A stretch of DNA of 64,000 bases. Origin: Candidatus Thorarchaeota archaeon (GTDB lineage: Archaea > Asgardarchaeota > Thorarchaeia > Thorarchaeales > Thorarchaeaceae). Shown in pieces: positions 4,570 through 7,182 of the stretch (positions within the stretch are counted from its first letter, which is position 1; each line of letters starts with the position of its first letter). The translations under genes and the position numbers were made by a program. The stretch is from NCBI GenBank assembly GCA_048882325.1, contig JBHLRS010000006.1:62079-126078 (forward strand), in the 5' to 3' direction. The notes under the pieces were generated by a model. It made no database searches and was not told the origin of the DNA. It saw only the letters and a list, made by a program, of their open reading frames with translations.

Positions 4570-5811
4570 ATGCAGATTCCGGGGACTAATATTGATGTAA
4601 GTCTCAAAGTTAATCGGATTTACATTGCAGACCCGGCTGTAAATCGTAGATTGAAATTTGCAGGAAGATCTTTTACAGATATACTAGAGGAAGTTCAAAG
4701 ATTTTCATATCTACGAGGTTTCAATGTTCCCCTTCCAATTCTCAAGTTCATTTTAAAGAGAATAGGTCTTCCTGAGGTTGATGTTATTCCTGGTGAGGAC
4801 GAACTAACGAAGGAAGATCTACTAGAACTCGCAAGAGCCCTGAATGTTCTTGATTCACTAAAAGACGAATTCCTTTCTCCAACTGGCAAAGGTGATATTT
4901 TAGAAGACATCAGTGGCAATATGATACATCCGGTTTCAGAACTTGAAGATTTGAAGATTGACACACCAGCCCCTCAACAAACAAGCATCTGGGAAGTTCC
5001 CCTCAGCGAGGAAGTCAAAGATCTAGTATACTCTTTCCATGCAGAGAACATACCTACAAGCACTCCTACACCAAGAACACAATCCTCTGAAGATGTGAAA
5101 CCAGTGAAATTCATCTGGGATGATCCTGAAATTGTTTCAGCATTACAAGATACATCTGAAGATGAAAAACCGCAGCAAGTTGTATCAGACATATATGACC
5201 TGAAGGTCTTGTTTCTTGGAGAAGATGGAGTTGGAATTAATAGTATACTCTTTGAGTCTAACTTGAAACTCGGAAATGATTACTCTTCTCTTGATCTTCC
5301 TTCAACTAGACCTTTCACATTTAGCAATATAGTTGAATACAATGAAGCAAATGTTAGAGTTGACGCTTGGACATTTCCAATGAGTATGGATGCCAAAGTA
5401 CCGAAAACTGAGTTCTATACAGGATCTGGCATCTTAGTACTTGTCTACTCGGTTGCTGATAGATGGAGCTTCGACAGCCTTGATTTTTGGGTTAGAGAAG
5501 TTTCCAATGCATTCTTAATCCCTCCACCAATTATCATAGTCGGAAACAAGACGGACCTGCGAGACCATCCCATCTATGATGAGGATGATGAGGTAGAAAC
5601 TCCTGTTTCAACGCAGGAGGCTCGTGAATATTGTAATCAAATTGCTGAGATGCTTGGAGAAAATGGACAATCTCACCCATTACTTTTCATCGAAACTTCA
5701 ACCGTAACGGGACAAGGAATTGCTGAATTACTAAATATGATTGTAGACTTCTGGGAAGTCAATGAACGACCAAGCATGCCTGCGACTGAACAACATGCTC
5801 CAACACACTAG
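4570..5811 (+). CDS. Rab/Ras-like small GTPase-fold protein with ~210-aa N-terminal extension and degenerate G1/G3 (paralog 1)
   Basis: KVLFLGEDGVGINS (G1-like), LVYSVADRWSFDSLDFW, IIIVGNKTDL (G4), IETST..GQGI (G5). Start 4570 chosen by alignment with the paralog (ORF track 4504). Confidence 0.8.
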   Translation: MQIPGTNIDVSLKVNRIYIADPAVNRRLKFAGRSFTDILEEVQRFSYLRGFNVPLPILKFILKRIGLPEVDVIPGEDELTKEDLLELARALNVLDSLKDEFLSPTGKGDILEDISGNMIHPVSELEDLKIDTPAPQQTSIWEVPLSEEVKDLVYSFHAENIPTSTPTPRTQSSEDVKPVKFIWDDPEIVSALQDTSEDEKPQQVVSDIYDLKVLFLGEDGVGINSILFESNLKLGNDYSSLDLPSTRPFTFSNIVEYNEANVRVDAWTFPMSMDAKVPKTEFYTGSGILVLVYSVADRWSFDSLDFWVREVSNAFLIPPPIIIVGNKTDLRDHPIYDEDDEVETPVSTQEAREYCNQIAEMLGENGQSHPLLFIETSTVTGQGIAELLNMIVDFWEVNERPSMPATEQHAPTH

Positions 5812-5934
5812 AGTTTTTGTTCTAGATATGGATTTCTGTAAAACAGATACAACTCGCACTGGTACCCAAAACTAATATTAATATACTTAAATATTTTATA
5901 TTATTGTACAATGAGGATGTAGGTCGTTCTAGGT

Positions 5935-7182
5935 ATGCAATTTCCAAGGACCAATATTGAGGTGAGTCTCAAGACCAATGGTATCTATCTTAGAGACCCC
6001 GTTACAACCCGAAGAATACGGATAATCGGTAGACCCTTCAGAGATGTGATGGAAGATGTACAACGATTCATCTATATTCGAGGTTTTCAGGTTCCTCCAT
6101 CAATTGTCAAGTTCATGTTGAAAAGGACAGGTCTTCCGGATGTCGATAGGATTGTAGAGCAATACGATTTAACAGATGACGATATACAGGAGCTTTCACA
6201 AGCACTCAATGTCCTGGACAATCTGACTGATGAGTTCCTCTCTCCTCTTAGTGAAGCAAATCGCCTCCTTGATGAACTCGAAAGCACACTAGGAGTCATC
6301 CCACTTGAACTTGAAGACTTGAGTACTGATGCACCTGCTCCACAAGAAATGAATATTTGGGAAGTTCCTATTGATGAAGAAGTTCAGTCACTGGTATATT
6401 CTTTTCATCCTGAGAACATATCTACAAGTGTTACCACTCCACGAACTCAATCTGAAGATGATGTTAAACCAGTAAAGTTCATCTGGGATACTCCTGAGAT
6501 GACAGAATCAATCAAATCCTTATCTGCGGGAGAGGAGATATCTGAGCGCATTGTTTCGAATTTCTCCGAATTAAAAACACTATTTTTGGGCGAGGATGGA
6601 GTTGGGATTAATAGTATCCTCTTTGAGTGTAATTTGAAGCTTGGAAATGACTACTCATCTCTCAATATTCCACCAACAAATCTATTCACATATAGCAACA
6701 TCGTTCAGGATGACAGTATGAATGTCCGCGTTGATGCTTGGACCTTTGAGAAGATTATGGAGGCTAAGGTACCTAAGACTGAGTTTTATTCAGGCTCTGG
6801 AATAGTAGTAATTGTCTATTCCGTAGCTGAAAGATGGAGTTTCGATAGTCTTGATTTCTGGATCCGAGAGGTTGCTAACAGTTTTGTGATTCCTCCTCCA
6901 ATAATTATCGTTGGTAATAAGACAGACCTGCGAGATCATCCCGTCAATGATGAGGATGATGATGTAGACATACCTGTTACAACTGAAGAAGCACGATCTT
7001 ACTGCAACAAAGTGGCTAAGACTCTCGGAGACGAAGGGCGAACCCATCCATTATTCTTCATCGAAACATCGACGATAACTGGCAAAGGTATAACTGAATT
7101 GCTGAACAAGATTGTAAGCTTTTGGCAAGATAATGACCGGCCAAGCATGCCAGCAACCGAACAACATGTCCCTGTAATCTAG
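5935..7182 (+). CDS. Rab/Ras-like small GTPase-fold protein with N-terminal extension and degenerate G1/G3 (paralog 2)
   Basis: Colinear with 4570-5811; KTLFLGEDGVGINS, GNKTDL, IETST, same RPSMPATEQH tail. Confidence 0.8.
   Translation: MQFPRTNIEVSLKTNGIYLRDPVTTRRIRIIGRPFRDVMEDVQRFIYIRGFQVPPSIVKFMLKRTGLPDVDRIVEQYDLTDDDIQELSQALNVLDNLTDEFLSPLSEANRLLDELESTLGVIPLELEDLSTDAPAPQEMNIWEVPIDEEVQSLVYSFHPENISTSVTTPRTQSEDDVKPVKFIWDTPEMTESIKSLSAGEEISERIVSNFSELKTLFLGEDGVGINSILFECNLKLGNDYSSLNIPPTNLFTYSNIVQDDSMNVRVDAWTFEKIMEAKVPKTEFYSGSGIVVIVYSVAERWSFDSLDFWIREVANSFVIPPPIIIVGNKTDLRDHPVNDEDDDVDIPVTTEEARSYCNKVAKTLGDEGRTHPLFFIETSTITGKGITELLNKIVSFWQDNDRPSMPATEQHVPVI

Follow-up and report, generated by a model that had tools for sequence, protein, structure and literature searches.

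A tandem pair of candidate Rab-like pseudoGTPases beside a leucine-rich repeat gene in Thorarchaeia

What can a Ras-like protein still do once the residues that contact phosphate and magnesium have been replaced? This question is raised by two neighbouring genes of a Candidatus Thorarchaeota archaeon (assembly GCA_048882325.1, contig JBHLRS010000006.1), which lie in a stretch of 64,000 nucleotides (positions 62,079 to 126,078 of the contig) that we analysed as a whole and call the window. Both genes code for a protein with a Rab-like guanosine triphosphatase (GTPase) domain. The original prediction, made from the sequence alone, was that the two are pseudoGTPases with an identically altered P-loop, kept by selection and acting as scaffolds or as binders of guanine nucleotides. 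We favour, with a probability of roughly 60%, that the proteins are catalytically dead pseudoGTPases which serve in a fixed state as adaptors and work together with a leucine-rich repeat (LRR) protein encoded next to them.

The two genes are intact, co-directional open reading frames arranged in tandem on the plus strand. Paralog 1 (protein P0001, 413 aa) occupies positions 4570–5811 and paralog 2 (P0002, 415 aa) positions 5935–7182; for paralog 1 the ATG at 4570 is preferred over an upstream TTG at 4504 because the homologues begin at MQIPGT. The proteins are 64% identical over their full length and have the same architecture of an N-terminal domain, a disordered linker and a Rab-like domain, as judged from the translations and Pfam matches and, for paralog 1, also from an AlphaFold2 (AF2) model. 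The Pfam family Ras (PF00071, curated cut-off 21.6 bits) matches residues 212–392 of P0001 with 48.0 bits (E = 1e-12) and residues 214–394 of P0002 with 45.2 bits (E = 1e-11). The match covers only the C-terminal 180 or so residues; the first 210 or so residues of each paralog are not GTPase-like. In the AF2 model residues 208–397 form a six-stranded alpha/beta G-domain fold with a pLDDT (predicted local distance difference test) of about 80–87, and a Foldseek search with this domain returns Rab and Rho proteins (template modelling score, TM, by target 0.66–0.81; E about 1e-10). By sequence the closest solved relatives, found with HMMER, are Ypt1 and Rab1. The C-termini read ...EQHAPTH in paralog 1 and ...EQHVPVI in paralog 2, and the tail ERPSMPA.E is conserved in the family alignment. 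Cysteine is absent from both ends, as predicted, and the proteins thus lack the Rab prenylation motif.

The register of the G motifs was fixed by the HMMER alignment to Ypt1 and by a gap-free MAFFT alignment with canonical small GTPases that the genome also encodes and whose motifs are GxxxVGKT[SA] and DxxGQ. The G1 motif is GEDGVGINS in both paralogs, at 5218–5244 and at 6589–6615 exactly as first noted. Here Ile223 corresponds to Lys16 of Ras and Asn224 to the magnesium-binding Ser17, while Ser225 is the S of the canonical GKTS. An insertion or deletion in the P-loop is ruled out, as the Ypt1 alignment, the alignment with the same-genome proteins and the AF2 secondary structure agree: strand beta1 spans residues 208–217, helix alpha1 starts at 223, the spacing is that of Ras and the P-loop bulge is absent. 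We also considered that the related form GK-x-[ST] is a one-residue insertion or bulge in the P-loop; this was rejected, since the canonical GKT-S of the same genome aligns without gaps and the spacing in the AF2 model is no different from that in Ras.

The G3 motif had been placed at the string DAWTF. The absence of DxxG which this implied is correct, but the string lies three residues off register. Its tryptophan aligns with the Rab tryptophan of WDTAGQ, and its aspartate is not the G3 aspartate; therefore the equivalent of G3, with the tryptophan before it, is W-TFPMS in paralog 1 (5368–5385) and W-TFEKI in paralog 2 (6739–6756), where a canonical protein has W-DxxGQ. In Ras numbering, Ile stands in place of Lys16, Asn in place of Ser/Thr17, Thr in place of Asp57, Met or Lys in place of Gly60, and Ser or Ile in place of Gln61. 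Kept are the glycine-rich backbone of the P-loop, the serine after position 17, the guanine specificity motif G4 (NKTD at 5545–5556 and 6916–6927) and a G5-like ETST (5692–5703 and 7063–7074), the last two as already read in the original prediction.

Compared with a competent Ras-like GTPase, the domains thus lack GxxxxGK[ST] as well as DxxG with its catalytic glutamine, and they retain guanine recognition through NKxD and G5. Among the Rab features the interswitch tryptophan is present and the RabF region of switch II is replaced, as read from the alignment and not from a formal RabF scan. With a GTPase fold, degenerate G motifs and purifying selection on the genes, the proteins qualify by sequence as pseudoGTPases.

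That the genes are under selection is clear from the ratio of nonsynonymous to synonymous substitution rates (dN/dS). Between the paralogs it is 0.10 with the NG86 method and 0.18 with LWL85, far from 1, with dS saturated; the GTPase-like domain is the most constrained portion in this comparison (0.05–0.13). Against orthologues from other genomes both paralogs give 0.04–0.11, and one orthologue pair in which dS is unsaturated at 0.70 gives an omega of 0.11. The paralog genes are not decaying, and the earlier argument for selection, to which the conserved motif states also speak, holds.

The motif states are a property of a whole family. A search of 5.8 billion proteins found 174 homologues with the same architecture of about 415 aa, and those with a name are nearly all from Candidatus Thorarchaeota; judged from these matches, the family is specific to Thorarchaeia, that is, confined to one archaeal class. 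Our alignment has 117 rows, namely 116 family members and the more distant paralog P0122. Position 16 is valine or isoleucine in every family member, and positions 16–18 read [VI]NS in 72 of them, [VI]KS in 34, [VI]SS in 9 and VGS in one, so that the serine at position 18 is invariant. Orthologues with canonical motifs would have spoken for ordinary GTPases, but neither GK[ST] nor DxxG occurs in any of the 116 members, nor does an equivalent of Asp57 or Gln61. In contrast to the lost phosphate, magnesium and catalytic residues, the guanine motifs and the glycines of the P-loop hardly vary: 114 of the 117 rows have NKxD and a single row lacks E-x-S, and among 82 diverse sequences G217, E218, V221, G222, S225, K327 and D329 never vary.

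How did the lysine disappear? We rooted a FastTree tree with P0122, a third paralog of the same genome (428 aa, L003:817-2103 on contig C2 of G000) which reads GEDGVGKES and WSFDLAV. It is 30% identical to the pair overall and 37% over the G domain, and has the same N-domain and a longer linker rich in lysine and glutamate. Almost all genera of the class have proteins of the P0122 type, which are not linked to an LRR gene. Their G1 is GVGK[ERKQ][ST], and WSFDLAV invariably stands where G3 would be; the type is itself atypical, without DxxG and in most members also without Ser/Thr17. More distant LRR-linked relatives in the genera g9 and g6 (33–38% identity) read GVGK[QR][SA] and W-x-x-E-G. Within the family the basal forms have GVGVKS and WTFEG. 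A derived clade of 72 rows (support 100), to which both paralogs belong, has GVG[VI]NS throughout, with WTF.KS; its neighbours read GVGI[KS]S and WTFPQG and include a clade of 9 rows with ISS. These states suggest a stepwise loss from GVGK-x-S over GVGVKS to GVG[VI]NS. The most parsimonious history of the sequences would start from an atypical Rab-like ancestor, already without DxxG and variable at position 17, in which the lysine shifted by one position and was finally lost. Elsewhere in the superfamily lysine was lost independently, to methionine, in two more lineages (P0242 and P0269, with GEEGVGMQS and GEDDVGMSS), and one representative protein with the N-domain and a Rab-like domain reads GEDIVGRST.

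The tree also qualifies one argument for selection, that the same P-loop persists in two diverged copies. The P-loop has indeed been kept in both. The clade of paralog 2 (16 rows, support 100) is, however, nested within the xNS clade, which means that lysine had given way to asparagine before the tandem duplication and that this change was retained afterwards; the two copies inherited this state and did not each keep it independently from a canonical ancestor.

In paralog 1 the N-terminal domain comprises residues 1 to about 105 (4570–4884). Modelled alone with AF2 it reaches a pLDDT of 87.6 and consists of three strands and two helices, with a long helix at 81–102. It matches no Pfam or NCBIfam family. 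Foldseek against the PDB gave nothing convincing (best E 0.06), a wide VIA-align search had a de novo designed protein on top (Z 5.9) and rows of ribosomal proteins and type III secretion system chaperones at 4–5, all in the background range, and in the atlas the shape search had a DUF5996 protein on top (TM 0.54) and the feature search no usable match. A profile of the domain run against 1.84 billion representative proteins found 45 proteins, with the domain N-terminal in all of them. Almost all matches of at least 395 aa carry the Rab-like domain, recognised by the G1 string and usually by NKxD, and the shorter ones look fragmentary. The acidic linker (4885–5190 in paralog 1) is predicted to be disordered over residues 106–205, with a pLDDT below 50 across most of it. 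Despite the disorder it has near-invariant motifs, some of them conserved tryptophan-acidic ones: IW[ED]VP (IWEVP at 4987–5001), LVYSFH.EN, TPTPRT and KFIWD (5107–5121), with W141, P144, F156, H157, T167–T170, F181, W183 and D184 nearly invariant in the family alignment.

With which protein could such a domain work? Upstream of paralog 1 and divergent from it lies a gene for an LRR-only protein of 207 aa (3689–4312, minus strand; Pfam LRR_8 and LRR_4) without a signal peptide. Between the two genes is an AT-rich intergenic region of 257 bp (4313–4569) which, from its sequence and the gene order, presumably holds a shared promoter region. A tblastn search with the proteins of the window against loci of other genomes shows that the LRR and GTPase genes are neighbours in divergent orientation in five genera (g1, to which the pair belongs, g12, g10, g9 and g6), and the pairing holds down to 33% identity of the GTPase and 32–35% identity of the LRR protein. 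The LRR-linked type of GTPase is present in 32 of the 87 genomes of the class. We counted an LRR gene as orthologue-grade if it matched over the full length at an E of 1e-35 or better or was adjacent, and such a gene occurs in 26 of the 32 genomes; in the other six the contig ends beside the GTPase gene, on the side where the LRR gene would lie. The LRR gene is thus present in all 26 genomes in which the pairing can be checked. Genomes without the GTPase have no orthologue-grade match, although all of them carry many paralogous LRR genes. Since LRR genes are so numerous in these genomes, the link rests on orthology together with orientation.

Among solved structures the LRR profile matches best to the LRR domain of the Chlorobium tepidum Roco protein (6hlu, 8r4b and 5il7; E from 5e-45 to 2.5e-42), followed by a small margin by a TIR-domain protein, the acid-labile subunit of the insulin-like growth factor (IGF)-binding protein, internalins, Toll-like receptors and SHOC2 (E about 3e-29). 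Two observations concern further copies of these genes. The LRR orthologue of one g12 genome (G063:C274:372-983) has an in-frame TAA, which could be a sequencing error or mark a pseudogene. At the end of a contig of G056, also from g12, a second divergent copy of the N-domain (L052:7187-7459, 30% identity) begins some 750 bp after the LRR-linked GTPase gene, on its downstream side, and is cut by the contig end; it suggests an independent tandem arrangement in g12.

From the motif states, the fold, the purifying selection, the order of motif loss and the co-location and co-occurrence with the LRR gene, all of which the analysis shows, we infer a physical binding of the LRR protein and an adaptor role, and we suggest that the proteins act as follows. 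The G domain, without the canonical contacts to the beta- and gamma-phosphates, to magnesium and to the catalytic water, would not cycle with GTP. The pseudoGTPases would instead be adaptors in a fixed state, the 207-aa LRR protein being their most likely companion, and the motifs of the linker together with the N-domain could dock further partners. Canonical hydrolysis and switching are very unlikely because all of these contacts have gone from the sequence. NKxD, ETS, the P-loop glycines and Ser225 serve in guanine recognition and hold the alpha- and beta-phosphates through backbone amides. Because these elements are almost invariant, an occupied pocket is favoured over an empty one; by a narrow preference, read from the same residues, we expect a residual and probably magnesium-independent binding of guanine nucleotide.

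Several points weigh against the adaptor reading. The loss of hydrolysis and the nucleotide state are predictions from the motifs. In the basal members a lysine is retained at the next position (VKS), in the derived clade there is one at Gly60 (WTF.KS), and a non-canonical contact of either lysine to phosphate is conceivable. The genomes have 5–37 LRR matches each, so that adjacency to some LRR gene is by itself unremarkable, and as the genomes are related and not independent samples, the co-occurrence is a consistent pattern and not a statistical test. We found no longer fused protein with the N-domain or the linker and no fusion of an LRR with the GTPase, which is weak evidence. The predicted complex of P0001 with the LRR protein speaks weakly for the pairing, with an ipSAE interface score of 0.44 (0.40–0.48 among the runs) compared with 0.18 for the best of three controls; the contacts agree to 100% among the runs and the partner pLDDT is at least 88. 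The mark that we use for ipSAE is passed by 58 of 80 solved complexes and by 2 of 110 mismatched pairs, but a passing value of 0.60 or less is found for only 7 of those 80 complexes and for both of the passing mismatches; these counts hold roughly, as the prediction used self-made alignments. The model is weak support: such a prediction is more often wrong unless the pairing is likely beforehand.

Among the alternatives, the one that survives best is a class i pseudoGTPase which binds no nucleotide and is purely a protein–protein scaffold, with NKxD, ETS and the P-loop glycines kept for structural reasons. The simultaneous absence of the P-loop lysine and of both magnesium ligands (position 17 and Asp57) would fit, and the superfamily shows no fewer than three independent losses of the lysine, as if the binding of phosphate were of little importance. 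There are precedents as well, as AAGAB psGD keeps the fold and binds its partners with it (PMC12490416), and the pseudoGTPase domains of p190RhoGAP have been described as another case (PMC5593906). The almost complete retention of NKxD and E-x-S in the alignment and the invariance of G217, G222 and S225 in diverse sequences nevertheless speak against an unused pocket. The described examples of this class have generally lost the NKxD, ETS and P-loop motifs too. Taken together, we hold this alternative to be rather unlikely.

Could a relocated lysine have preserved a working switch, either at position 17, as in the basal GVGVKS, or at Gly60 of switch II, as in the derived WTF.KS? A migrated lysine is known from the WNK kinases, the P-loop backbone and the guanine motifs are intact, and the tree suggests that the lysine of switch II (TFEK) arose before the lysine of the P-loop was lost. 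The ISS clade with WTFPQG, however, is just as conserved although it has a lysine at neither place, paralog 1 with its WTFPMS lacks the lysine of switch II, the family has no equivalent of Gln61 or Asp57, and there is no magnesium ligand left. We regard a switch of this kind as very improbable. That the pair regulates membrane remodelling together with the cluster of ESCRT-II (endosomal sorting complex required for transport) and Vps4 genes at 10836–13576, with the LRR link being secondary, has hardly any probability in our view: the EAP30, Vps25 and Vps4 genes do lie 3.6–6 kb downstream of the pair here and at four other loci of the same genus, but this linkage exists only in g1, the housekeeping gene of the aspartyl-tRNA synthetase (AspRS) intervenes, and the loci of g12, g10, g9 and g6 have no ESCRT, AspRS or hydrolase gene nearby.

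The reading as an LRR-associated pseudoGTPase can be compared with several known systems. The first are the Rab-like GTPases of Thorarchaeota themselves, of which Thor-Rab of SMTZ1-45, a canonical single-domain member, has been crystallised with GDP in the one structural study of such proteins; they share with the pair the lineage, the Ras/Rab-like fold and the absence of a C-terminal prenylation cysteine (PMC10933270). The canonical GTPases of the same genome also share NKxD, ETS(A/C/S) and a DLR...PV..EEG loop after G4. However, canonical Thorarchaeota GTPases are single-domain proteins of about 180–235 aa with GxxxVGKT[SA] and DxxGQ, whereas the proteins described here have about 415 aa with the additional N-domain and linker, and lack Lys16, Ser/Thr17, Asp57, Gly60 and Gln61. 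The acidic loop that follows NKTD-LR in paralog 1 (5557–5610) is matched by a stretch in canonical GTPases encoded by the genome, which almost reaches its length in L007 but is shorter in L005. We had considered this loop, between DLR and (P)V..EEG, as a Rho insert; as it is also present in canonical GTPases, this was rejected, and it looks like a feature of the lineage.

Eukaryotic pseudoGTPases, be they of class i (AAGAB psGD, p190RhoGAP pG1/pG2, CENP-M) or of the type of Rnd and RhoH, resemble the family in a selected fold, lost catalytic motifs and a role in protein–protein contacts (PMC12490416, PMC5593906). The family described here is archaeal and differs in having arisen independently, from a Thorarchaeial Rab-like protein. 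Typical class i members have all motifs decayed, and Rnd and RhoH are nucleotide binders dead in hydrolysis which keep the P-loop lysine; the split pattern of the Thorarchaeial proteins fits neither. Asparagine at the magnesium-coordinating position 17 recalls the dominant-negative Ras S17N and is found in 72 of the 72 xNS members, but S17N Ras keeps Lys16 and DxxG, both of which are lost here, and a behaviour as a trap for guanine nucleotide exchange factors would be an analogy only.

An LRR module associated with a Ras-like G domain is also the arrangement of the Roco proteins (LRR-Roc-COR), such as that of C. tepidum (6hlu/8r4b) and LRRK2. The Pfam family Roc (PF08477, cut-off 27) matches P0002 with 28.6 bits and P0001 with 25.7 bits, and Ras scores higher on both. 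No COR family is found in Pfam at an E of up to 1, and only some 15 residues follow the G domain. In contrast to the degenerate domain described here, Roc domains are active GTPases. The pair, with its LRR in a separate, divergent gene and without COR, is not a Roco protein, and without a prenylation motif and with its switch II replaced it is not a bona fide Rab either. A working analogy would be SHOC2-MRAS-PP1C, where a stand-alone LRR solenoid binds a Ras-family protein; SHOC2 also appears in the list of solved LRR matches given above. It senses whether MRAS is in the GTP state, whereas the G domain of the pair probably cannot switch, its binding of the LRR protein is weakly predicted, and there is no homology beyond generic LRR.

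A bolder version, which we put forward tentatively and consider doubtful, is a split, COR-less LRR/pseudoGTPase module of the Roco or SHOC2-MRAS kind. In it the G domain would have been frozen stepwise (GK-x-S, G-V-K-S, G-V-N-S) into a magnesium-independent state, nucleotide-occupied or empty, and would be an adaptor locked for good in an 'on' or 'off' position, which the linker and the N-domain couple to a giant surface protein system. If true, it would give a prokaryotic precedent for signalling scaffolds of LRR proteins and small GTPases, and the series would document a switch becoming a pseudoenzyme.

Asgard archaea have large, mostly uncharacterised expansions of small GTPases and LRR proteins, and their LRR solenoids are essentially without assigned function (2026 preprint 10.64898/2026.10.28.762692). 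In the family described here one particular LRR protein and one G-domain protein are linked through a conserved, orientation-specific pairing in five genera, and a single superfamily holds a graded natural series with the canonical P-loop lysine, a shifted lysine and none. Thus, two questions are opened: whether a Ras-like fold can keep a guanine nucleotide without Lys16, Ser17 and magnesium, and whether partnerships between LRR proteins and GTPases, like those of Roco or SHOC2, are older than the eukaryotes. The significance is bounded by the restriction of the family to one archaeal class and by the fact that pseudoGTPases are already an established category. In the literature collection searched, no publication joins 'pseudoGTPase' with 'Asgard', and among the papers listed for Asgard with Roco, LRR or GTPase none deals with this family; contributed here are the motif register, the trajectory of the lysine, the rarity of the N-domain, the count of the LRR co-occurrence, the match to the Roco LRR and the weak complex score.

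The neighbourhood of the pair differs among the genera. On the far side of the LRR gene lies the 5′ part of a gene for a giant surface protein (1–3540, minus strand), with an N-terminal hydrophobic segment (signal or transmembrane) and Laminin_G_3 and DUF2341 repeats, which runs off the window. In relatives this protein has more than 3500 aa. In four of the five genera its gene follows the LRR gene and has the same direction; it is absent from the g9 locus. ESCRT-II/Vps4, AspRS and alpha/beta-hydrolase genes are linked to the GTPase pair in g1 only. The hydrolase (218 aa, 7194–7850, minus strand; a weak match to Abhydrolase_11) is convergent with paralog 2. Its position is conserved in g1, and it adjoins the paralog-2-type copy even where the paralogs are separated (L049). 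Further downstream are the genes for an EAP30/Vps22-like protein of ESCRT-II (10836–11627), Vps25 (11630–12364, minus strand) and Vps4 (12368–13576, minus strand). Between the AspRS and EAP30 genes lies a gene for a protein of 355 aa with a 4Fe-4S ferredoxin domain (9719–10786). It is without a counterpart in the syntenic loci of relatives, where EAP30 directly follows AspRS, and looks like an insertion specific to this genome. A reading of the locus as a defence system was dropped, as neither the GTPases nor the LRR protein nor the hydrolase has a PADLOC match. The sequencing runs listed as containing the stretch are all sediment metagenome DNA, from two studies, with no RNA run among them.

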